A stretch of 32,000 nt of DNA from positions 2,880,001 to 2,912,000 of the forward strand of contig CP126532.1 of assembly GCA_030167145.1 (NCBI GenBank), read 5' to 3'. Positions 1 through 29,587 of this stretch are shown one piece after another. The stretch's first letter is position 1; each line of letters starts with the position of its first letter. The notes under the pieces were generated by a model, which was not told the origin of the DNA, made no database searches, and was given only the letters and a program-made list of their open reading frames with translations. The position numbers and the translations under genes were made by a program. The DNA is from Ktedonobacterales bacterium. Its GTDB lineage: Bacteria; Chloroflexota; Ktedonobacteria; Ktedonobacterales; JADMIN01.

Positions 1-723
1 GTGTATCATCTGCTCGAACGGTTCCTCTCGACGCAGAGCGTGGGCAACCTGCCCAATGTGCAGGTGCGGGCGAACACGCAGCAGCGGCTGCTGCCATGGT
101 TCGGGGCATCCTCCTCAGCCGACCAGCTTGGCAACAGCTATGGGCCGTATGCGGCGCTGCTCTCCGCGAGCAACACGTGGACTATCGTAGACACGGGGCA
201 GGTGACGCTGCCGCCCTATAGCCAGGGGGCGATGACGGACCCGACACAAACGTATCTCGTGCCGCATCCGCAGTGGCAAGATCTGACGGCGGGCGGGGCC
301 ATGTGTAGCGCGAGCTGGTGCGCGCTGCTGCCGATAGATGGGTCGCTCATCGTCGGCGTGGTGAACAATCCGAGCAATGCGGCTTCGGCGCTCTCGAACA
401 CCTGGCTGTGGACGTATTTCGATGGGCTGCTGGTGAACCGGGCGGCAGCGCAAGATGCGCCAGGGTGGCTCTACTCACTCGAAGCGGTAGCGACGCCGAA
501 TGCGGCGCATGCGGGTGGTGGGCCAGGGACACAGGGGACGGGGAATGTGAACGTGAACAGTGGGGCCGATCCGTATCTCATCCTTGACCCGACGAGTGCG
601 CTTCCTCAAACGGGGCAAGCAGGAGTCAATCAACTGGTGGCCTATGTGGCAGATCAGGCGGGTGCGGTGCTGGGATTCGCGGGTGAGGTGAGCTATAGTC
701 CGTTGTACCTGTGGCCTCGGTAG
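1..723 (+). CDS. hypothetical protein, C-terminal part (5' end outside window)
   Basis: Frame is open from the window edge to TAG at 721-723. Gly/Ala/Asn/Gln-rich sequence with no motif I recognise. Product unknown. Confidence 0.5.
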   Translation: MYHLLERFLSTQSVGNLPNVQVRANTQQRLLPWFGASSSADQLGNSYGPYAALLSASNTWTIVDTGQVTLPPYSQGAMTDPTQTYLVPHPQWQDLTAGGAMCSASWCALLPIDGSLIVGVVNNPSNAASALSNTWLWTYFDGLLVNRAAAQDAPGWLYSLEAVATPNAAHAGGGPGTQGTGNVNVNSGADPYLILDPTSALPQTGQAGVNQLVAYVADQAGAVLGFAGEVSYSPLYLWPR

Positions 724-730
724 TGTGAGG

Positions 731-800
731 TAAGCCAAGGTAAGCCAAGGTAAGCCAAGGTAAGCCAAGGTAAGCCAAGGTAAGCCAAGGTAAGCCAAGG
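731..800. repeat. perfect tandem repeat, 7 x 10 bp (TAAGCCAAGG)
   Basis: Read directly: seven identical head-to-tail copies starting 8 nt after the stop of the 1-723 ORF, followed by a partial TAA. The minus-strand ORFs across it (LTLAYLGLPW...) are just repeat translation. Confidence 0.97.
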
Positions 801-1037
801 TAAATGACTGAGGGAGAAGGGAGGACGGAAGATGAGCGAGGGACGGCGAAACCCTGGTGGAGGAGACATATCGAGACATCGCCAGACATGCTCGTACGGT
901 GTTGTGCGCTGTGGTACACTAGCGCCATATCAACGAGACAGTTGCGCTCTGGATCTTCGCGAGGTGACTTGAATTCACCGTGAGACAGCCTCTGGATCAG
1001 CAGTGTGGAGGTCCACGTTCGAGCAGGAGTAAACGTC

Positions 1038-1214
1038 ATGCGCACGACTTATCGCGGCATTCGCGAACTGGTTCGCCTTTTCGCGGTTATCGCTGTCCTG
1101 GCTGTCGGAATTGTTAGCGTGGGGCTTGTGCCGACGCGCCATGCGATGGCCAGCCACGGTGGACCGAACACCCAGTTGGCTATTGAATGCCCCTCGGGCT
1201 TGAGTCACTGCTGA
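1038..1214 (+). CDS. small secreted peptide precursor (58 aa) ending in Cys-x6-Cys-stop; family member C
   Basis: AGGAG lies 8 nt upstream of ATG 1038. The peptide has a basic N-region (MRTTYRGIRELVR), a hydrophobic core (LFAVIAVLAVGIVSVGLV), then P-TRHAMA (A-x-A-like site) and the tail SHGGPNTQLAIECPSGLSHC*. The architecture and C-terminal C-x6-C match the peptides at 22459-22668 and 24253-24510. Confidence 0.5.
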   Translation: MRTTYRGIRELVRLFAVIAVLAVGIVSVGLVPTRHAMASHGGPNTQLAIECPSGLSHC

Positions 1215-1388
1215 GCTACCTCTACCTGCTGGATATTGGGTTCGAGGAGGCGGACTGGCACACGCTGCTCAGCAATCTGAATGCTGTCGCGCCGCCGACT
1301 GGATCTGGCGCCGCCGGGCGGCGAATGCTCGATCCGCGACATTGTGCGCATGTGGGCCACGCCAAGCTGAATGATGAGGCGCCCGCAG

Positions 1389-4332: not shown

Positions 4333-4680
4333 TTAGCTTGTCGCTGGCTGACGCTGTGCGCGGGCCATCAGCGCTAGCCCCGCCGCGACGAGCAGGAAGA
4401 CAGCCGGGATGAGCGCCCACCAGCCGATAGCGAAGAAGAAGCCGATGGTGCAGAGGATGAGCAGCACCGCGCCAACCTCTGGCATGACCATGACGAGGAT
4501 GGCGCCAACGCACGCTACGATGGCCACCAACGTCCCAATGAAGAGATGTCCACCGTTGTTGGTGATGCCCGTGATCTGCCCAACGGCGCGCACTGAGGAA
4601 TTGAGGATGTTGATGATGAAGCCGACGACGCCTCCGACAAGCCCGGAGATCAGCGCGAGAACGCGCAGTGTGACTCTCAT
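4333..4680 (-). CDS. small integral membrane protein (115 aa), unknown function
   Basis: AAGGA lies 7 nt upstream of ATG 4680. The protein is almost entirely hydrophobic, with about 4 predicted spans. Confidence 0.6.
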   Translation of the reverse strand: MRVTLRVLALISGLVGGVVGFIINILNSSVRAVGQITGITNNGGHLFIGTLVAIVACVGAILVMVMPEVGAVLLILCTIGFFFAIGWWALIPAVFLLVAAGLALMARAQRQPATS

Positions 4681-4934: not shown

Positions 4935-5029
4935 GCCCGCACGATACCTGCGCAGCGCGCGATACACGTGGAGAGCGAGTGGGCGTGTTGCGCGAGAGCC
5001 ACGAGAGATGCGATGGAGGGTAGCGCCAG

Positions 5030-6346
5030 ATGAGCCAGTTGCGGGTGTTCATCAGCCATGCTAAGGAGAATACGGCGTTTGCCGAGTGGCTGGCCAGCGA
5101 TCTGCGCCGCGCGGGGGCGGATGTGTGGCTCGACGCCAGCCATCTCGTAGGCCCGGGCGACTTTCTCGACAGGATCAACCGGGCGCTCAGCAATCGCGAT
5201 ATCCTCGTTCTCGTGCTCTCGCCCGCCGCGCTCGCGTCCAAATGGGTACCCGACGAGATGCATGCCGCCATCCTGCGCTACAAGGATGGCTTCATGGGTG
5301 CGCCGCTCGTCGTGGTGGCGCAGTCTGTCCCGCTGCAAGACATTCCTCCGCTCTGGGCCGTCTACAATCGCATTGACATCCCCAGGGACTATCGCGGTGA
5401 TTATCAAGCATCTCTGCCAAGTGTATTGAAAGCGCTGAGTCTGAAACTTTCTCTTCCGCAACCGTACAAACCTGCGACACTCACGCCCGCAACGGAGACT
5501 CCTTCGATTCCTGCTCCTTCACCGTCGGCCGCCGCGTCTGCTTCCGCGCCGCAGAGGCAGGCTGCCCCACCAGCATCGTCACCTGCACTGCCGATAGCTC
5601 CTCCTGCTCCCGCGCCGCAGAGGCAGGCAACCCCAGCACCTCGTCCGAATCCTACTTCTGCGCCCTCGCCCGCCCCGCAGGTGGCTCCGTCACCGTGGGC
5701 CTCTGCGCAACCGGCGCGGAGAGATTTGCCACTCAAACGCTCTGCTTCTGTGCCGGTCCCTGCCGGGCCGGTGGTGTCGCGGCGCAAATTGTTGATAACG
5801 ACCGGAGCCGTAGCGGCGAGCTTGACAACCGCTGGGGGAGTGGCGTTGTGGATTCACTCCCGCAGTTCTGGCCAGCAGCATTGGCGTGTCAAGACAGGTG
5901 GACCTGTGATTTCCTCGCCAGTGGTGGCGAACAACGTAGTCTATGTCGGTTCGGAAGATGGCTCCCTCTACGCGGTGGATGCGAGTGCGGGCAAGCCGCG
6001 CTGGCGCTTCCCGACCGGCAATAAGGTGGTGTCCTCGCCAGTGGTGGCGAACGGCGTGGTGTATGTCGGCTCAGGTGACGATTATCTCTACGCGGTGGAT
6101 GCGAGTGCGGGCACGCTACGCTGGAGGTTCCCGACGGGTGGCGAGGTGGATTCGTCACCAACAGTGGCGGACGGAGTGGTCTATGTCGGCTCAAGAGACT
6201 ACTCCCTCTACGCGGTGGACGCGAGTGCGGGCACGCAACGCTGGAACTTTCAAACGGTCGGACCTGTGCTCTCGAAACCTGTGGTGGCGAACGGAGTGGT
6301 GTATGTCGGCTCAGATGATGGCTACCTCTATGCGGTGAATGTCTGA
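5030..6346 (+). CDS. TIR domain / Pro-rich linker / single TM / 4-blade PQQ-like beta-propeller fusion protein
   Basis: GGAGGG lies 9 nt upstream of the ATG. The N-terminus (VFISHAKENTAFAEWLASDL...ILVLVLSPAALASKWVPDEM) shows a TIR pattern including the S-x-W-x-x-x-E glutamate (E76). Residues ~140-250 are Pro/Ala/Ser-rich with APQRQA twice. SRRKLLITTGAVAASLTTAGGVALWI is a hydrophobic span. Four 40-aa repeats follow (VVANxVVYVGSxDxxLYAVDASAGxxRWxF). Confidence 0.85.
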   Translation: MSQLRVFISHAKENTAFAEWLASDLRRAGADVWLDASHLVGPGDFLDRINRALSNRDILVLVLSPAALASKWVPDEMHAAILRYKDGFMGAPLVVVAQSVPLQDIPPLWAVYNRIDIPRDYRGDYQASLPSVLKALSLKLSLPQPYKPATLTPATETPSIPAPSPSAAASASAPQRQAAPPASSPALPIAPPAPAPQRQATPAPRPNPTSAPSPAPQVAPSPWASAQPARRDLPLKRSASVPVPAGPVVSRRKLLITTGAVAASLTTAGGVALWIHSRSSGQQHWRVKTGGPVISSPVVANNVVYVGSEDGSLYAVDASAGKPRWRFPTGNKVVSSPVVANGVVYVGSGDDYLYAVDASAGTLRWRFPTGGEVDSSPTVADGVVYVGSRDYSLYAVDASAGTQRWNFQTVGPVLSKPVVANGVVYVGSDDGYLYAVNV

Positions 6347-6506: not shown

Positions 6507-6782
6507 CTACAGGCGAGGGGCAAGTTTGTTGTAGTCCTCGTGGGTGCCGATCCAAAACCAGGTGACGGTGTCGCCGTCCAAAATGCCGATTGCACGGTAG
6601 TGCTCGCCTGCGCGAGCCGAATAGATCGAAGGATCACGTTTGCCTATCGGCTTGAATTGCAAGCTCGGATGTCGTGGGTTCTGCTTGAACAATTGATAAT
6701 CAGCGCGGGCCTGGCGTTGCGCTCGTTTGGGCAGCGCATCAAAGAGCGTCCGAAAACGTTTAGTGCGCTGTGAATGGAACAT
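6507..6782 (-). CDS. type II toxin, RelE/ParE superfamily
   Basis: 91 aa. YRAIGILDGDTVTWFWIGTHEDYNKL is the typical C-terminal pattern of RelE/ParE-fold toxins. The ATG overlaps the upstream antitoxin stop (TAATG). Confidence 0.75.
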   Translation of the reverse strand: MFHSQRTKRFRTLFDALPKRAQRQARADYQLFKQNPRHPSLQFKPIGKRDPSIYSARAGEHYRAIGILDGDTVTWFWIGTHEDYNKLAPRL

Positions 6783-7000
6783 TATTCCCAGCCGCCGTCT
6801 TCCACGTCGCCAAGCGCAATGTCGGCGCGGGCTTCGGCGGCGAGGCGTTCGAGGGTCTCCTGGCCCTGGGGGCTGCTAACAATGGCATCCCACTCTTGCT
6901 CATCCAGCCACGCCTCGATTTGCGCGGCCAGGTGACGTTGCGCGTCTTCGGAAAGCTGCTGCTGCGCCTGCTCAAATACCTGGCGCAATTCGTCTACCAT
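6782..7000 (-). CDS. cognate antitoxin (72 aa, acidic, helical), family not recognised
   Basis: GGGGAG lies about 9 nt upstream of ATG 7000 (MVDELRQVFEQAQ...). The stop overlaps the toxin start by 1 nt. Position and size fit an antitoxin. The longest ORF to 7078 lacks an SD. Confidence 0.6.
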   Translation of the reverse strand: MVDELRQVFEQAQQQLSEDAQRHLAAQIEAWLDEQEWDAIVSSPQGQETLERLAAEARADIALGDVEDGGWE

Positions 7001-7084
7001 TGCATGATCTCCCCAGGTTGTACGCGCCTCACCGCACGATACATATATGCCCGTCTCCTTCACCCATGAGTATAGCATACTGGA

Positions 7085-22833: not shown

Positions 22834-22853
22834 TGCAATTCTGCGCTGTATAC

Positions 22854-24074
22854 CTAAAGAAAGAGTTCTTGAAGAAGCCAAAGCCGATGTCTTGGCCGTC
22901 GCGCAAGAACAATCAAATCGCTATCGAAAGCCGACTGCGCTGCATATGCCAGATTTAACTTGGCCAAGTCAACCTGTCCACGAAGCTCGTACTCTATACC
23001 CAAGGAGGTATAGGCTTGAGTAATAATTGCCGTATCCTTGTGAACTTCTGCCCAGTAGATTACATTGACAATGGCGTCAAAACGCTGCCTTTCGGGACGT
23101 AGTAGTTGACTACCTCTAATGGCCGAAAGCTGTGCGAGATAGACACCAGGTTCATCTTTCGCGGAGTTGGCGAGCTCAATCGCTTTCCGTTGATAGTTAA
23201 GAGCGCGCTCAATTCTGCGCTCGCGTTCGGAACCCAATGGCAGTTGCTCACCTAAGCTAAGAATTGCCTCAACAGCAGTAGTCTGTGCGCGATTGGCGAA
23301 AAGAGAGGATTCCAAAGACGCAAAAGTAAGCGCAGCTTGAGTGGCATAATCGTCTGCCTCCTGGTAGTGGCCAGAATAGAGGAGTAGAAGCGCCAGATAC
23401 CATTTGACGCGAGTACTCGCCTCCAAGGGATTTGAGATAAACGATGTCAGCGTGCTAGCTTCTATCAGATGTTTACGTGCTGATTCCGCAAGATCCAAGT
23501 AGATTTCCGCCCCACTGGCATGAACGAGGAGTTGAAATTTGAAATCAGGTTTGACAAAGCCCGACAAGTCGAATGCATGAAGGCCATCTTGAAAGTCCTG
23601 AACCGCATGCCGTAGCCGTAAATCCGCTCGATAGACCAGTCCTCGCTGTTCATACAATCGCGCTAAGATTTCTTGCTCGCCTGGCATGTGTCTAGCAGCC
23701 TCAATTGCTGTGTTGAGCACAGGGAGTGCATCCAAATAGTGCCGACGCAAAACCTGAGCAGAAGAGTAGATCAATGCAAATCGAATGAATTGTCGACGAG
23801 ACGAGATTCTTTGCCGCCCATTCGAGTTTGGAGGCTCTACATAGGCTCTGATGAGCTGAACTACATGCCGTAGCTTTGCCTTGCTCGAAACCCCTGTATA
23901 TAGTGTGCTCTCTCGCAATAGATCGAAGCCGCGAGCGATGGTATCCTTCCTCTTTGGGACAAAGCCTGGCTCGGACATCCAATTGGGGTGATAATGCAAT
24001 TCAGCGGGATAGCGAATTGCCAAATTGGCAGAAATGCCGGATGAATCAAGAGGAGAACCGCTAGATGGAAACAT
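22854..24074 (-). CDS. TPR-like all-helical repeat protein (406 aa), unknown function
   Basis: AGGAGA lies 6 nt upstream of ATG 24074. Recurrent TPR-like helical pairs (ILARLYEQRGLVYRADLRLRHAVQDFQDGL; WYLALLLLYSGHYQEADDYATQAAL; AYTSLGIEYELRGQVDLAKLNLAYA). No Walker A motif and no obvious HTH. GC is much lower than the flanks. The longest ORF reaches 24191, which would lie upstream of the putative -10. Confidence 0.65.
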   Translation of the reverse strand: MFPSSGSPLDSSGISANLAIRYPAELHYHPNWMSEPGFVPKRKDTIARGFDLLRESTLYTGVSSKAKLRHVVQLIRAYVEPPNSNGRQRISSRRQFIRFALIYSSAQVLRRHYLDALPVLNTAIEAARHMPGEQEILARLYEQRGLVYRADLRLRHAVQDFQDGLHAFDLSGFVKPDFKFQLLVHASGAEIYLDLAESARKHLIEASTLTSFISNPLEASTRVKWYLALLLLYSGHYQEADDYATQAALTFASLESSLFANRAQTTAVEAILSLGEQLPLGSERERRIERALNYQRKAIELANSAKDEPGVYLAQLSAIRGSQLLRPERQRFDAIVNVIYWAEVHKDTAIITQAYTSLGIEYELRGQVDLAKLNLAYAAQSAFDSDLIVLARRPRHRLWLLQELFL

Positions 24075-24164
24075 ATTGGCTCTCCTGATGTCAGTCCACA
24101 AACCTTCATCACCCATAGGAATCGTGCATGACCAGTATACTACAAAAAGGAAAAGTGAATGCCG

Positions 24165-24170
24165 ATTATA
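24165..24170 (-). promoter_or_regulatory. perfect -10 hexamer TATAAT (minus strand) upstream of the TPR gene
   Basis: Plus-strand ATTATA at 24165-24170 reads TATAAT on the minus strand, about 90 nt upstream of ATG 24074. No convincing -35 element. Confidence 0.3.
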
Positions 24171-24252
24171 TGATATCATCAGCAGGGCCACAGATCACTG
24201 TATGTAAGCAGTTGACCCTGCCGACGGCCTCGTGTCTACGACGGCAAATTAA

Positions 24253-24510
24253 CTAACAAGTGGTAAGCAGTCCGCCACACTCGCCATCCCGGTGAATAGT
24301 GGCCATGGTGGCATGGGCAGGTGAAATCGCTGAGTGGCCGGCTGGCGCTGCGGCGCTGGCGGGGAGGAACTGCGCCACCGCGAGGAAGGCGGTGAACGCT
24401 GCTACGGAGACGGCCTGACGGACGACACGGGTGAACCACGGGGTGCGCGCTGGGTCACGTGGGGCTTGCCGTGGTGCGGGTGAGTTGGTTATGCTGTCGT
24501 TTGTGTTCAT
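24253..24510 (-). CDS. small secreted peptide precursor (85 aa from ATG 24510) ending in Cys-x6-Cys-stop; family member B
   Basis: Basic segment RTPWFTRVVRQ, hydrophobic core AVSVAAFTAFLAVAQFL, P-ASAAAPA, and tail GHSAISPAHATMATIHRDGECGGLLTTC*. Shares QFLP, the I-H dipeptide and the terminal C-x6-C with peptide A. The start is uncertain (ATG 24510, 24564 or 24606; only weak SDs). Confidence 0.5.
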   Translation of the reverse strand: MNTNDSITNSPAPRQAPRDPARTPWFTRVVRQAVSVAAFTAFLAVAQFLPASAAAPAGHSAISPAHATMATIHRDGECGGLLTTC

Positions 24511-24624
24511 TGTGGTGGGTGCTCCAGGCGTCGGACGACGCCGGCTGTGAACAAGTAGAGCCATTTTTGCCGCCCCAACAGGCGGCGAATCACGCGATGA
24601 ACTCATGCAAAAGTCTGGTCGCTC

Positions 24625-24640
24625 GCAAGCTGCAACTTGC
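24625..24640. promoter_or_regulatory. 16-bp imperfect palindrome GCAAGCTGCAACTTGC (candidate operator, box 2)
   Basis: 14 of 16 positions are symmetric, with the same GCAA-N-N-TGCA-N-N-TTGC design as box 1. It lies about 115 nt upstream of ATG 24510 of peptide B. Confidence 0.35.
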
Positions 24641-25288
24641 TTCGATCAGGCTTTTGTTTGTCATTAGGTCGGCATAGCATCCACCCCCCCTTCCACTCAG
24701 TTTGCCGCTCTGGCGTCCGAGATGGCTCTCGCGCCACGTGCCGTCCGCCTCCCGATCCCTGCTATCGGTGATAGTGGGTTCACACACATGCACCCGCTAT
24801 CTGGTCGGTGAGTGCGCCGCCGAGCCGGGAAACGTCCGCTCATTCGCAGCACCGCCTGTCCGCAAGTGCAGACAGCAGCATAAAAGGAAAAATGCTAGTA
24901 CATATATAGCACTATTCACTGCGTTCATGTCAAGAGCGAGAAGTGTTCCACCGCATCATCACACTATATAAGAGGATATATCTGGTCAAGTTTCGTTGTA
25001 ACAATCGAATTGCGCAACCCAAACGTATTGTCATATACGCGATACATACTGAGATATGATACTATCATCCAGGCGAGGACGCGCGGACACGAACGAGCTG
25101 GATTTTTGGCATACTGAGGCACGGAGCAGGCCGTTGCCGCAGCGCTACTGGCTTCGCAATGTGAGTTCGATGCAGGCACTGAGCGCGTATGTAGAGGCAG
25201 GCGAGTTTCGCGCCAGATGACTGGTTGCGGGCGCTGGGATGCAAAGCGTTACGATTGTCACACCTGCACAGCGCGCCGACGTGGATGC

Positions 25289-25615
25289 TCAACCAGCAGT
25301 GAGCCGCGCGCGTGTGACACATAACGCCGCGCGCTCATCCGCACTCAGGAACGGCAGACGGTCATCAGTGATCTCTACAATATCCAGCAGCCAGATGATG
25401 ATATCGGCGGCGTGCTCGATCGCGCGCCAATGTCCAACTTCTAGATGCGCTCGCTGGGCATAGGCGTTGGTCAGCGCGCGCGTAAAGGTATCTAGCCAGA
25501 TGAGCGTATATGCAGGATCGCCACGTTTTAGGTGGAGGAGACTCAGTTCGACTTCGCGCGCCAACTCGTCTGGCACATTCTCGACGAACGTGATGATCTC
25601 CGCGGGTGCTCTCAT
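25289..25615 (-). CDS. hypothetical protein (108 aa), no recognisable family
   Basis: AGGAG lies 6 nt upstream of ATG 25615. Balanced helical-looking composition (LAREVELSLLHLKRGDPAYTLIWLDTFTRALTNAYAQRAHL). Intermediate GC. Confidence 0.5.
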   Translation of the reverse strand: MRAPAEIITFVENVPDELAREVELSLLHLKRGDPAYTLIWLDTFTRALTNAYAQRAHLEVGHWRAIEHAADIIIWLLDIVEITDDRLPFLSADERAALCVTRARLTAG

Positions 25616-25887
25616 ACATTGCTCCTATCCCCCAACCCGCCGACTGGCATCAGGGTTCGCCCGTGTCTGAGTGGCGCATAGTGGCGCGTGCCCACTTCGT
25701 ATGTTGGCCTAACGTCATGTGATGATGAATTGTCACTTTCACTGCTAACTCTGCACAATCCCTTGCGTCGCTATCATATCACATGGAGAATGTCAATACA
25801 TATACCGAATACTCGTACTTGTGCGCGCACTTTCTTGCACCAGGTGGCGGCCCTCTGGCATCGCCACCGACCCGCCAGGTAGCGATA

Positions 25888-25932
25888 TGTCGCGGCTCTC
25901 TGTCGCGGCTCTCTGTCGCGGCTCTCTGTCGC
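25888..25932. repeat. perfect tandem repeat, 3.5 x 13 bp (TGTCGCGGCTCTC)
   Basis: Read directly. Lies in the 650-bp AT-rich spacer between the divergent 108-aa and HTH genes. Confidence 0.95.
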
Positions 25933-26150
25933 CGTCAGACCAGAGATTGCCGCCGTGCTGTGTGCTGGTTGGCCACATAATACCAGAAAATGCATGATAA
26001 AATACCGGGACCGTAGCTCTTTGGCGTCGAATGGCAGTGGGGCGACAATGACGCAACATTCGCTGATTTCAAGGGGTGTTTCCGCATCTTAGCGCACGAC
26101 CGCGCCTAGAGATGATAGGATATATTTCCTAATTGCGTCGTGGAATGGTC

Positions 26151-26198
26151 TTGACAATACTAGGACAATCAGGTATGCTTGGCAAAGCACGTTGCCAA
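26151..26198 (+). promoter_or_regulatory. sigma-70 promoter TTGACA-17-TATGCT with overlapping 20-bp palindromic operator TTGGCAA-N6-TTGCCAA
   Basis: Consensus -35 at 26151-26156 and -10 at 26174-26179. A perfect 7-bp inverted repeat (26179-26185 and 26192-26198) spans the -10 edge and the predicted TSS. It lies about 90 nt upstream of ATG 26268. Confidence 0.5.
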
Positions 26199-26267
26199 TT
26201 TGTGGAACAATTTTTCTATGGAACGTACCCTTATTGTGTACTGCTATTGTGGAAGGGATGATGCGAT

Positions 26268-26741
26268 ATGGTCTCGCCTACTAGCGGACGCCGTGGCGGC
26301 GGTAAGACCTATACGCTCAAAGAAGCCGGGCAGCATCTTGGCATAGATCAGAAAACGCTGCGCCGCAAAATGGATCTGCTCGGTCTCTCGCCAAAGCCTA
26401 GTGATGAAGATAAACGCGCCCTATTGCTCACATTGGACCAGGTGGATCTCCTGGCCAGTCATTTGCGTCGCATGCCAAGCGGGAACGTGTCCGCATTGCA
26501 AGAGATGGCGCTTCAGATCGTGATGGATCGCGAACGCGAGTGGCGGATGCGCAGCGAAGATCTGCAGCGCCATGAGCGCGATTTAATGGCCGAAATCGAG
26601 CAATTGCGGCGCGAGGTGCAGGCATTGCGAGCTGTGCGTAAGCCGTCTACCACGTCCGCTGAGATCGCTGTTGAGAAACACGCGCCCACGCAGGCCAAGG
26701 GCGACGTTGCCCATGCCTCGGATATGCCAGGTGAGAATTGA
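26268..26741 (+). CDS. helix-turn-helix DNA-binding protein with C-terminal coiled coil (157 aa)
   Basis: YTLKEAGQHLGIDQKTLRRKMDLLGL is an excisionase/MerR-like HTH pattern. A heptad-like segment follows (DLQRHERDLMAEIEQLRREVQALRAV). Confidence 0.65.
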   Translation: MVSPTSGRRGGGKTYTLKEAGQHLGIDQKTLRRKMDLLGLSPKPSDEDKRALLLTLDQVDLLASHLRRMPSGNVSALQEMALQIVMDREREWRMRSEDLQRHERDLMAEIEQLRREVQALRAVRKPSTTSAEIAVEKHAPTQAKGDVAHASDMPGEN

Positions 26742-26860
26742 CGCGACGGCGGATCGGCGCATAGACTGCTGACATTGGCCGCCAGAAGTCAGCCTCGTCG
26801 CTACGCAGCGCGTCTATGGGGACAGGCCATGGCGAGCCAGCAGGGGCAGGATCATAGCAT

Positions 26861-28018: not shown

Positions 28019-29587
28019 GTGGAAGCCCAACAGGTTTGGCTGGCGGCGCTAGAGCGCGTGCGTCGCCGCATCTCACCGGGGGCGTATACAGCCTGGTTTA
28101 GCGGCACGCTGGGGCTTGCGCTTGAGCAGCGTATGCTTTCCGTCGCCGTACCCTCCACCTTTGCCAGCGAACACCTGCGTCAGCGCTTCGGCGAACTGGC
28201 GCGTATCGCTGTGAGCGAGGTGCTGGGCCTGAGCGCCGAGATTCGCTTCGTGGTGCGTGAGGTGACGGGTCCGAAGAACCAGACAACCAAGCAAACGTCA
28301 GCTAATGCCACCAGTGTCCGTAAACGTCGGGGCACGCGTGGCTCCAGCGTCACGCGTGTCGCGCTGGCCCGCCCGCCGCGCGTGGCTCCAGCGCCACTGC
28401 CGCCAGCGGCACAGATGCCGCTACTCTCGGCAGTCGAGCCGGTGGCGCCGGTGAAGTCGGTCTCGCACGTATCGTCCGCACCACCAGATGAGATGGTCGC
28501 CACACCTGATATGCTCGCGCGTGTACTGCCCGCATCACCCCAGCTCGCACGCGACGCTGTCCTCAGCAGGCCACGCGAGACCGCGACACGCTATCTCTTC
28601 GAGACATTCATCGTGGGCACGACGAACCGTCTGGCTTACGCGGCGGCGCAAGAAGTGGCGCAGAACCCCGGCGAACGTTACAATCCACTGCTGATTTACG
28701 GGGGTGTGGGTCTGGGCAAAACCCACCTACTGCATGCTATCGGCCATCTGACGCATCAGCGTGGCCTGAGCGTGGCCTATGTGACGGCGGAACAGTTTAC
28801 CAACGAGATTATTGAGGCGATCCGCCTGCGCGCGACCGATGCCTTCCGGGCACGCTACCGCGAGGTGGATGTGCTGCTGGTGGACGATATTCAGTTCATC
28901 GCGGGCAAAGAGTCTACGGAAGAAGAGTTCTTCCACACGTTCAACGCGCTGCACGAAGCCAACAAGCAGATTGTGCTGAGCAGCGACCGCGTGCCCCAGG
29001 CGATGCGCCAGTTGCATGATCGCCTACGTTCGCGCTTCGAGTGGGGTTTGATCGCCGATATTCAGCCGCCCGACTATGAGCACCGGCTGGCGATTCTGCG
29101 CGCGAAAGCGGCGACGCTGCCCACGCCACTGACCGATGAGACGCTGGCCAGCCTGGCGCGCCCCGAACACGAGAGCATCCGCGCGCTCGAAGGCGCGCTC
29201 ACTCGCGCGATGGCCTACGCGCGCATGCTGGAGCAGCCACTGACACCACGCCTGGTGGCCGACGCGCTGGCGCCACTGGCCGACAGCAGCAGCACGCGCC
29301 CGGTTGAGCCAGCGCAGGTGCTCGCGGCGGTCGCCGAACACTACCACTTCACCGTGGCGGAGCTTCAGAGTAAATCGCGCGAGCGCGCCATCGCCCGCGC
29401 CCGCCAGATCGCTATGTACCTGCTGCGCGAAGAGACCCCTACGTCGCTGGCGCAGATCGGCCAGCAGCTTGGTGGCCGCGACCACACCACCGTGATGCAT
29501 GGCTGCGCCCACATCGCGCAGGCGCTCGCCCAGGATGACACGCTGCGCCGCGAGATCGGCGCAATCCGCGCCGCCCTGCACGGCTAG
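28019..29587 (+). CDS. dnaA: chromosomal replication initiator protein DnaA
   Basis: GGGGAGG lies upstream of GTG 28019. Contains FETFIVGTTNRLAYAAA, Walker A GGVGLGKTHLL, Walker B LLVDDIQF, sensor/box VII SSDR, and the domain IV signature DHTTVMH. Confidence 0.95.
   Translation: MEAQQVWLAALERVRRRISPGAYTAWFSGTLGLALEQRMLSVAVPSTFASEHLRQRFGELARIAVSEVLGLSAEIRFVVREVTGPKNQTTKQTSANATSVRKRRGTRGSSVTRVALARPPRVAPAPLPPAAQMPLLSAVEPVAPVKSVSHVSSAPPDEMVATPDMLARVLPASPQLARDAVLSRPRETATRYLFETFIVGTTNRLAYAAAQEVAQNPGERYNPLLIYGGVGLGKTHLLHAIGHLTHQRGLSVAYVTAEQFTNEIIEAIRLRATDAFRARYREVDVLLVDDIQFIAGKESTEEEFFHTFNALHEANKQIVLSSDRVPQAMRQLHDRLRSRFEWGLIADIQPPDYEHRLAILRAKAATLPTPLTDETLASLARPEHESIRALEGALTRAMAYARMLEQPLTPRLVADALAPLADSSSTRPVEPAQVLAAVAEHYHFTVAELQSKSRERAIARARQIAMYLLREETPTSLAQIGQQLGGRDHTTVMHGCAHIAQALAQDDTLRREIGAIRAALHG

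Follow-up and report, generated by a model that had tools for sequence, protein, structure and literature searches.

A TIR protein with four PQQ-type propeller blades in a Ktedonobacterales genome: a possible shortened allele of a receptor-like TIR enzyme

Gene and domain layout

The region analysed here (the window) is a 32,000-nt stretch of contig CP126532.1 (assembly GCA_030167145.1, positions 2,880,001–2,912,000 of the forward strand) from a Ktedonobacterales metagenome-assembled genome (MAG). The gene under study lies at nt 5030–6346 of the window on the plus strand, and is an open reading frame (ORF) that starts with ATG and specifies 438 aa plus a stop codon. This is exactly the extent given in the original prediction, a model-generated interpretation of the same DNA that had been made before any database search. 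The product, annotated as hypothetical protein OJF49_002769, consists of four parts in the order TIR_2 domain, disordered linker, SRRKLL motif with a weakly hydrophobic span, and four propeller blades of the PQQ type. Taken together, the results suggest, tentatively, a shortened allele of a receptor-like TIR enzyme. The features of the gene are as follows (AF2, AlphaFold2; HMM, hidden Markov model; KD, Kyte–Doolittle hydropathy; dGapp, apparent free energy of membrane insertion; pLDDT, predicted local distance difference test; Tat, twin-arginine translocation; TRF, Tandem Repeats Finder).

5015..5020, plus strand: Shine–Dalgarno-like GGAGGG, 9 nt before the ATG (seen in the sequence itself)
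5030..6346, plus strand: complete ORF, 438 aa plus stop, identical to P0001 (hypothetical protein OJF49_002769, Ktedonobacterales MAG)
5039..5434, plus strand: TIR domain, residues ~4–135, flavodoxin-like alternating strand/helix fold (Pfam TIR_2, PDB TIR matches, AF2)
5255..5257, plus strand: codon of E76, the putative catalytic Glu of W72-x-x-x-E76 (alignment with AbTir, PdTIR and BtpA; invariant in alignments A1 and A2)
5435..5776, plus strand: Pro/Ala/Ser-rich low-complexity linker, residues ~136–249, predicted to be disordered (composition, pLDDT <50)
5777..5854, plus strand: SRRKLL and a Gly/Ala/Thr-rich span of 22 aa with weak hydrophobicity (residues 250–275), then basic HSR, a candidate internal Tat-type signal-anchor (KD, dGapp, TIGR01409, motif conservation)
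5879..5899, plus strand: N-terminal velcro strand HWRVKTG, residues 284–290, predicted to complete a ring's last blade (AF2 monomer and tandem models)
5885..6004, plus strand: blade unit 1, residues 286–325 (blade HMM, TRF, pLDDT 94–98)
6005..6124, plus strand: blade unit 2, residues 326–365 (blade HMM, TRF, AF2)
6125..6244, plus strand: blade unit 3, residues 366–405 (blade HMM, TRF, AF2)
6245..6343, plus strand: blade unit 4, three strands only, residues 406–438, with the native C-terminus ...GYLYAVNV (blade HMM, homologue ends)

TIR domain and linker

Residues 6–118 match Pfam TIR_2 (PF13676) with E = 3e-21 and 76.6 bits (cut-off 28), and AF2 models the domain as alternating strands and helices with pLDDT values of ~85–90 over most of its length and 68–72 at residues 31–50. 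When PDB sequences were searched with phmmer, residues 2–88 aligned with PdTIR (3h16), AbTir (7uxr/7uwg/8g83) and BtpA/TcpB (4lzp/4lqc). The domain contains the motif SKWVPDEM, and its W72 and E76 fall on the W-x-x-x-E motifs (WTEYE, WPARE, WPQKE) of the PdTIR/AbTir/BtpA NADases. E76 and 44 further positions are invariant in both an eight-sequence family alignment (A1) and a nine-sequence TIR alignment (A2), and OJF49_002769 keeps all 45. With its catalytic Glu intact, the domain is apparently an active NAD-cleaving enzyme.

The linker that follows is ~115 aa long and rich in Pro, Ala and Ser (32, 27 and 17 of residues 126–248). Most of residues 142–279 have pLDDT values below 50 in the AF2 model, and homologues differ in linker length and sequence. 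The original prediction had described the N-terminal half of the protein as a TIR domain with E76 as catalytic Glu, joined to a Pro-rich linker, and each of these assignments stands; in Pfam, both TIR_2 and PQQ_2 are above cut-off.

Blade number and origin of the four-blade state

The C-terminal region matches PQQ_2 (E = 4e-41) and Beta-prop_ACSF4 (150.5 bits, cut-off 133), and the quinoprotein dehydrogenase models score far below their cut-offs (TIGR03075, 56 bits vs 480; TIGR03074, 31 vs 833). Tandem Repeats Finder returned a 120-nt period with 3.5 copies, and the blade HMM detects exactly four BamB/PQQ-type units of ~40 aa, in line with the four 40-aa blades predicted earlier. As a property of the family, four blades do not hold up. 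A census of the 119 other proteins returned by the full-length search gave seven or eight blades in 113 (eight in 91, seven in 22), and four blades were found only in OJF49_002769. Seven or eight are also carried by the relatives with an N-terminal TIR domain (P0006, P0007, P0011, P0015, P0017, P0029, P0039, and L003 from another Ktedonobacterales MAG), and by all intact TIR-PQQ relatives counted in full except the one-blade P0142. Judged by this census, the four-blade state is a derived singleton and the gene a shortened allele.

The propeller begins with the W-R-x-x-T-G strand common to OJF49_002769 and its eight-blade relatives, and its end (...GSDDGYLYAVNV before the stop codon) resembles the native ends of eight-blade proteins (...GYLYAINA, ...GSVYALNA and ...DHVYALTA). 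No blade remnants occur in the 160 nt downstream of the ORF nor elsewhere in the window. The native velcro strand, the native C-terminus and the lack of remnants therefore point to an in-frame internal change in repeat number. A premature stop or frameshift was ruled out by the native C-terminus and by the absence of blade-like sequence downstream or elsewhere in the window, and truncation by insertion of the toxin–antitoxin (TA) module that lies beyond the gene was ruled out, as no blade remnant is present on the far side of the TA pair.

For blade 4, the best match is the terminal blade of P0006, and the first and the last blade of P0017 give it about the same score. No clean positional orthology that would map the deletion junction was seen for blades 1–3. 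The blades of OJF49_002769 and of L011, its closest relative by anchor and blade sequence, are of one homogeneous type (identity 0.69–0.75 within a protein, 0.68 between the two), which would be compatible with a simple deletion as well as with turnover and re-amplification of blades. A genome scan gave seven loci, with no shared neighbours and no eight-blade orthologous locus of the same synteny, and no near-identical alleles were present in the first metagenome scan.

An artefact of assembly, in which the true gene would be eight-bladed and its repeats collapsed by the assembler, is suggested by the source (a MAG) and by the 120-nt tandem repeats, a known assembly hazard. It is nevertheless extremely improbable. 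Collapse is unlikely because the blades are only 66–78% identical in DNA, and they are without long identical stretches. In addition, the gene sits on a contig of 5.07 Mb, and a Logan contig that was assembled separately (L002) carries it again, identical over its 438 aa and flanked by the same neighbours.

Half-ring geometry and ring closure

AF2 modelling of the full-length protein assigns pLDDT values of 94–98 to the four blades and leaves the velcro strand (residues 284–290) unpaired. The top Foldseek matches in the PDB were the designed four-blade chains v13Bagel4 (8pra), Cake4 (6tjd) and nvBagel4 (8prs), with 44–46% identity, a root-mean-square deviation (RMSD) of 1.1 Å and target template modelling (TM) scores of 0.89–0.94. 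The same 160 residues fit half of Cake8, Bagel8, 3hxj, YxaL and BamB at 1.2–1.7 Å (target TM-scores 0.40–0.51). Because it superposes both on Cake4/Bagel4 and on half of eight-blade propellers, the modelled monomer is read as the open half of an eight-fold ring, and not as a closed four-blade propeller.

As a surrogate for multimer prediction, a head-to-tail fusion of two copies of residues 277–438 was folded without an alignment. The resulting model (mean pLDDT 92.5, predicted TM-score 0.89) is a closed eight-blade ring in which both velcro strands are formed (E6–12, E169–174), and it superposes on Cake8 (6tjg) with TM-scores of 0.94/0.95 and an RMSD of 1.3 Å. With this blade geometry, four blades are predicted to be unable to close a ring except by pairing with a second copy. 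An experimental precedent exists in Cake, which was designed from the PQQ-type propeller 3HXJ and uses a 1-3 velcro; shortened versions of it form complete rings, as do Ika2/4 and Pizza2/3 (PMC7734218; bioRxiv 10.1101/2021.04.12.439409). The half-ring superposition, the closure of the tandem model and the assembly of designed fragments therefore make dimer closure physically credible. The incomplete propeller proposed originally is thus seen in silico: the monomer model is open, and a tandem copy closes it.

Anchor and membrane topology

The linker ends at SRRKLL (residues 250–255), which is followed by LLITTGAVAASLTTAGGVALWI. The hydrophobic span (residues 254–275) is marginal, with a maximum KD value over 19 residues of 1.5, a summed Hessa dGapp of ~+2.0 kcal/mol and no helix in the AF2 model. 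It is flanked by five Lys/Arg residues on its N-terminal side and three on its C-terminal side. The twin-arginine motif is internal, starting at residue 250, and not N-terminal. Scored with the NCBIfam twin-arginine model TIGR01409 (cut-off 16.7 bits), the anchor reaches 12.0 bits and that of L011 13.9, while four of nine family anchors pass (P0006 and P0015, 17.6 each; P0183, 18.9; L006, 21.4). Matches of the anchors to Pfam TAT_signal (PF10518) are sub-threshold only. Of the Tat-like anchor predicted earlier, the SRRKLL motif and the 22-aa span are present, but in this protein they remain below the formal transmembrane and Tat thresholds.

The relatives present a clearer picture. In all TIR-PQQ relatives, a hydrophobic span occupies the corresponding position, and the closest relatives keep the motif [ST]RRxLLIGxG. 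The spans of P0006, P0015 and P0017 are Gly/Ala-rich and equally marginal, and those of P0007, P0011, P0039 and L003 are strongly hydrophobic; overall, the KD values of the relatives' 19-mers range from 1.7 to 2.9 (several at 2.3–2.9), which makes OJF49_002769, at 1.5, the least hydrophobic of the family. Three metagenome proteins (P0061, P0100, P0120) show the reverse order of signal peptide, seven to eight PQQ blades, transmembrane span and C-terminal TIR domain, which, independently of the family with N-terminal TIR, puts propeller and TIR on opposite sides of a membrane. Moderately hydrophobic internal anchors that depend on Tat and precede basic residues are known from dual Sec/Tat families, the actinobacterial Rieske proteins among them, where they come after Sec-inserted helices and not after a soluble domain (PMC3471235, PMC5449189).

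It is also conceivable that the protein is entirely cytoplasmic, with a Gly/Ala/Thr-rich segment that does not span the membrane and a propeller that serves as a sensor or interaction module inside the cell, in the manner of TIR-WD40, TIR-TPR and AfsK-type kinase-PQQ proteins. The marginal hydrophobicity, the missing AF2 helix and the sub-threshold Tat and transmembrane profiles would fit, as would the wider set of 103 PQQ homologues with an N-terminal domain, 65 of which have no hydrophobic span before the propeller. This alternative is considered improbable given the position of the span, which is the same in every TIR-PQQ relative and strong in several, the four anchors that pass TIGR01409, and the reverse-order proteins with their two domains on opposite sides. 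For the family, the comparison favours a TIR domain inside and a propeller outside, possibly exported via Tat, an arrangement with which the present allele may or may not still comply. Topology is the weakest link in the case for OJF49_002769.

A family of TIR proteins with variable C-terminal regions

A word-indexed search with the TIR domain alone gave only seven matches, and an exhaustive HMMER search with residues 1–144 was used instead, which returned 26 cluster representatives at E<1e-30 and 726 at E<1e-10. About 20 of the 23 close representatives of the TIR subfamily that exceed 250 aa have a strongly hydrophobic 19-mer (KD >=1.8, mostly >2.0) 150–270 aa from the start, followed by a variable C-terminal region. 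Eight-blade PQQ propellers occupy this region in P0006, P0007, P0015, P0017, P0029, P0147 and others; elsewhere it carries an FGE-sulfatase/FGS domain (P0133), DUF929 (P0175), a polytopic membrane region (P0149, L005) or sequence without a Pfam match. The pattern of TIR domain, transmembrane span and variable domain is repeated in more distant relatives from soil metagenomes. The idea of the original prediction that a propeller was captured behind a TIR-plus-linker module fits: members of this TIR subfamily have other C-terminal domains placed after an anchor of the same kind. The same type of propeller (50–60% identity over the blades) is joined to Ser/Thr kinases, EACC1-type caspases and CHAT domains in actinobacteria and Chloroflexota.

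Conflict systems of multicellular bacteria have been described that combine an effector with a variable sensor; among them are TIR or kinase modules with fused FGS and propeller sensors (Kaur et al.; PMC7159879, PMC8195603). A literature search found no publication that joins 'TIR domain', PQQ, beta-propeller and bacteria, and no publication on bacterial TIR proteins that joins 'TIR domain' with Ktedonobacter. OJF49_002769 belongs to a small, apparently uncharacterised family centred on Chloroflexota (Ktedonobacteria and other Chloroflexota). Separately, the searches brought up giant proteins of 1400–2200 aa (P0131, P0150, P0157, P0159, P0161, P0162, P0168, P0171), each with five to seven separate stretches that match the TIR domain of OJF49_002769.

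Interpretation

The reading that is preferred here, as a possible rather than an assured one, is that of a receptor-like TIR enzyme encoded by a shortened allele; its product, if it folds, would form a constitutive two-fold dimer that restores the eight-blade ring, with a multivalent ligand clustering the TIR domains. The family layout would be that of a single-pass protein with a cytoplasmic N-terminal TIR domain that retains its Glu, a disordered Pro-rich tether, a weak signal-anchor of the twin-arginine type and a C-terminal sensor, which in the PQQ branch would normally be an eight-blade BamB/PQQ-like beta-propeller. In the present allele, recombination between repeats would have removed four blades in frame, or they were never regained, and the velcro strand and the native C-terminus would have been kept. 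In a homodimer, the N-terminal strand of each chain would complete the last blade of its partner, giving an eight-blade ring with two TIR tethers. Binding of a multivalent extracytoplasmic ligand to such propellers could then cluster the receptors and allow the TIR domains, on their ~115-aa tethers, to self-associate and cleave NAD+, by analogy with oligomerisation-activated TIR NADases.

Several points weigh against this reading. OJF49_002769 is the only four-blade member found, and its anchor is marginal by hydropathy (KD 1.5), insertion energy (dGapp +2), AF2 (no helix) and the Tat model (below cut-off). A hydrophobic span precedes the propeller in only 38 of the 103 wider PQQ homologues with an N-terminal domain, and PQQ propellers are therefore not intrinsically extracytoplasmic. 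An AF2 model of a tandem fusion falls short of predicting a true multimer, and AF2 has a bias for closed eight-blade rings. Neither partner genes nor conserved synteny came to light, and the functions ascribed to the family are all putative.

The main rival is a decaying allele, in which the sensor became inactive when four blades were lost in frame, leaving a misfolded or inert protein, a pseudogene in the making. The singleton status of the four-blade state, both among the 119 PQQ homologues and among all TIR-PQQ relatives, fits decay, as does the anchor with the lowest hydrophobicity of the family (KD 19-mer 1.5 vs 1.7–2.9). Damage is also frequent in related genes. In L011 (~211..1245), the fourth blade is interrupted by a gene with the transposase-type winged helix-turn-helix domains HTH_33, HTH_29 and HTH_32, which looks like an insertion sequence. 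The TIR gene copies of L006, L008 and L009 (MFD Chloroflexia MAGs) are frameshifted or truncated, the blades of L006 continuing in another frame. P0142 (L010 424..1317, on a 1.9-kb contig) is a complete TIR–linker–anchor gene with one PQQ blade, a native-type C-terminus (...GYIYALEA) and SHRNLL in place of SRR, that is, HR for RR; its blade number is reduced still further than that of OJF49_002769. The three MFD genes may, however, be either pseudogenes or the result of long-read indel errors. OJF49_002769 itself has an intact ORF with a good Shine–Dalgarno sequence, all 45 invariant TIR positions, and four blades that keep their structural motifs and are modelled at pLDDT 94–98; ring closure by a dimer is geometrically feasible, with experimental precedent in designed four-blade fragments. 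Decay is accordingly regarded as rather unlikely, though it is the alternative that most needs to be kept in mind.

The original prediction went further in another direction and proposed a switch: half-propellers that are monomeric at rest would be paired outside the cell by a ligand or by envelope stress, the TIR domains would assemble inside, and the NADase would be turned on. TIR NADases require self-association for activity, the models bear out both the half-ring and its closure, and the topological logic is common to the reversed signal peptide–PQQ–transmembrane–TIR proteins. Obligate pairing is favoured over ligand-driven pairing, however, because the open half-ring exposes two blade–blade interfaces and an unpaired velcro strand at its edge, because designed fragments of two, three or four blades that express assemble spontaneously without ligand, and because export by Tat would require folding, and hence pairing, beforehand. 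The eight-blade relatives would be unable to use such a switch, which would make it a novelty of one allele, and TIR activation generally takes higher-order assemblies, dimers alone not being enough. Ligand-driven pairing is thus highly improbable, and an isolated half-ring with an unpaired velcro is more likely to be an obligate dimer or a decaying allele.

The most elaborate form of the dimer reading is a functional natural half-propeller receptor: two TIR–tether–anchor–PQQ4 chains would share one eight-blade ring by reciprocal velcro exchange, be exported by Tat in a pre-folded state via an internal, uncleaved signal-anchor, and act as a prokaryotic 'Toll-like' surface sensor that clusters cytoplasmic TIR NADases upon binding events outside the cell. 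Such a receptor would represent a living intermediate in the evolution of propellers through oligomerisation, and the first bacterial TIR system to sense extracellular cues. In this full form the reading is distinctly unlikely.

If the topology deduced here is correct, the family couples a catalytically intact TIR domain, through a membrane anchor, to a sensor of variable type that faces outwards (PQQ propeller, FGE-sulfatase/FGS, DUF929 and others). Outside-in TIR signalling, the logic of Toll-like receptors, would then also occur in prokaryotes, namely in Chloroflexota of filamentous, multicellular habit. The cues to which characterised bacterial TIR systems (Thoeris, CBASS, SPARTA, Cat1) respond are intracellular. 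Propellers are thought to have arisen via oligomerising fragments, and designed half-propellers do come together in this manner. The closest PDB matches of the four-blade region are designed fragments and not a natural half-propeller, and the ectodomain offers a small, easily expressed test case. An internal Tat-like signal after a soluble domain would, if real, widen the known range of Tat substrates. Should the allele be decaying, the locus would still provide a clean example of a change in blade number by in-frame repeat recombination.

Genomic neighbourhood

Downstream of the TIR gene lies a TA pair.

6507..6782, minus strand: ParE-like toxin gene, convergent with the TIR gene (Pfam ParE_like PF24732, 38.5 bits vs cut-off 24.4, E = 1.1e-9)
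6782..7078, minus strand: putative antitoxin ORF upstream of the ParE gene, 72 aa in the source annotation (overlaps ParE by 1 nt; no Pfam or NCBIfam match)

The original prediction had taken this pair as a weak hint of an accessory or defence neighbourhood. The pair is real (PF24732, E = 1.1e-9), but there is no defence island: PADLOC returned no system partners, and synteny is not conserved. There is no sign of a functional link between the toxin and the TIR gene, and the toxin is not syntenic in relatives. The genes called within ±10 kb include an NMO/IMPDH-like oxidoreductase, a methyltransferase, DUF5658, a small polytopic protein and the ParE-like/antitoxin pair, as well as DUF1028-PG_binding, a hydrolase, a tRNA methyltransferase, and an extracytoplasmic function (ECF) sigma factor with its neighbours, and no neighbour recurs beside relatives. 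A 115-aa polytopic membrane protein (4333..4680, minus strand) is divergently oriented, 350 nt upstream of the TIR gene; it belongs to no Pfam, NCBIfam or PADLOC family and is not kept beside relatives.

PADLOC matches to OJF49_002769 are confined to the TIR module (residues 5–82; SAVED_TIR, Aga_TIR and a weak ThsB), and among 12 neighbouring proteins only a generic methyltransferase similarity to mad2 was returned. The ThsB_TIR model scores 17.6 bits, below its cut-off of 21.2, and no ThsA-like gene occurs within ±10 kb. Partners of the SAVED, cyclase and Argonaute-APAZ types are neither fused to the protein nor among its neighbours. The EACC1-caspase system consists of a 5' EACC1 gene with a single transmembrane span and a second gene led by a caspase or cyclase domain (PMC7159879). 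OJF49_002769 has no caspase domain, and the gene upstream of it is divergent and polytopic, with no NCBIfam or Pfam match.

Two further observations concern the right part of the window. A full-length dnaA gene is present at 28019..29587 on the plus strand (Bac_DnaA, E = 2.5e-69, plus DnaA_N and DnaA_C), and the GC skew is positive up to ~28 kb, after which it flattens or reverses; the window therefore probably spans the region of the chromosomal replication origin. A low-GC stretch at ~22850..26750 (0.49–0.57 vs ~0.65) contains ORFs of 445, 117 and 108 aa without a Pfam family, and one of 157 aa whose product shows weak similarity to Phage_Nu1 (PF07471, E = 0.0039). The stretch may have arrived as an islet by horizontal transfer, or may be AT-rich sequence beside the origin.

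Comparison with known systems

OJF49_002769 combines elements of known kinds, namely a TIR effector with a repeat sensor, the receptor-type order of enzyme, transmembrane span and propeller, and a propeller fragment; its four-blade state is unusual and may or may not be functional. With the bacterial TIR NADases (AbTir, PdTIR, BtpA/TcpB, and the TIR proteins ThsB, TIR-SAVED and SPARTA TIR-APAZ) it shares the TIR_2 fold and the W-x-x-x-E motif, and activation by self-association is to be expected. It differs from Thoeris, SAVED and SPARTA systems in that no ThsA, SAVED, Argonaute or cyclase partner is nearby, and in that its TIR domain is tethered to a putative anchor and a propeller. Receptor kinases with propeller sensors (PknD-type, AfsK-like), caspase-PQQ and CHAT-PQQ proteins likewise carry a related propeller C-terminal to a cytoplasmic enzyme, often after a transmembrane span, whereas the output of OJF49_002769 would be a TIR domain, its blades number four and not eight, and an EACC1-type upstream gene is missing.

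The propeller itself is most similar to Cake4 (6tjd), Bagel4 (8pra, 8prs), Ika4 (6g6q), Pizza2/3 and natural oligomeric propellers; its four-blade PQQ-type chain of ~160 aa has 44–46% identity to Cake4 and Bagel4, and agrees in blade register and 1-3 velcro. The truncated designs form rings of eight or nine blades; for OJF49_002769, the oligomeric state is that suggested by models. Unlike the designs, it is a natural protein with an inter-blade identity of 61–78% (100% in the designs), and it is tethered to a membrane anchor and an enzyme. The dual Sec/Tat proteins with internal Tat signals (Rieske Sco2149; families of Tooke et al. 2017) share an internal RR, a moderately hydrophobic span, basic residues, and a globular domain that is likely to be folded before export. 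In the family described here, in contrast, the Tat-like signal follows a soluble domain and a linker in place of Sec helices, there is no cofactor, and OJF49_002769 scores below the cut-off.

Animal Toll-like receptors resemble the predicted layout of OJF49_002769 in having a repeat ectodomain, a single span and a cytoplasmic TIR domain that is brought into proximity through the ectodomain, which is a functional analogy only. The ectodomain is a propeller and not one of leucine-rich repeats, the TIR domain is N-terminal (type II) and keeps its enzymatic Glu, and no homology is implied beyond the TIR domain. The domain order of Toll-like receptors is found in the reverse-order proteins P0061, P0100 and P0120.

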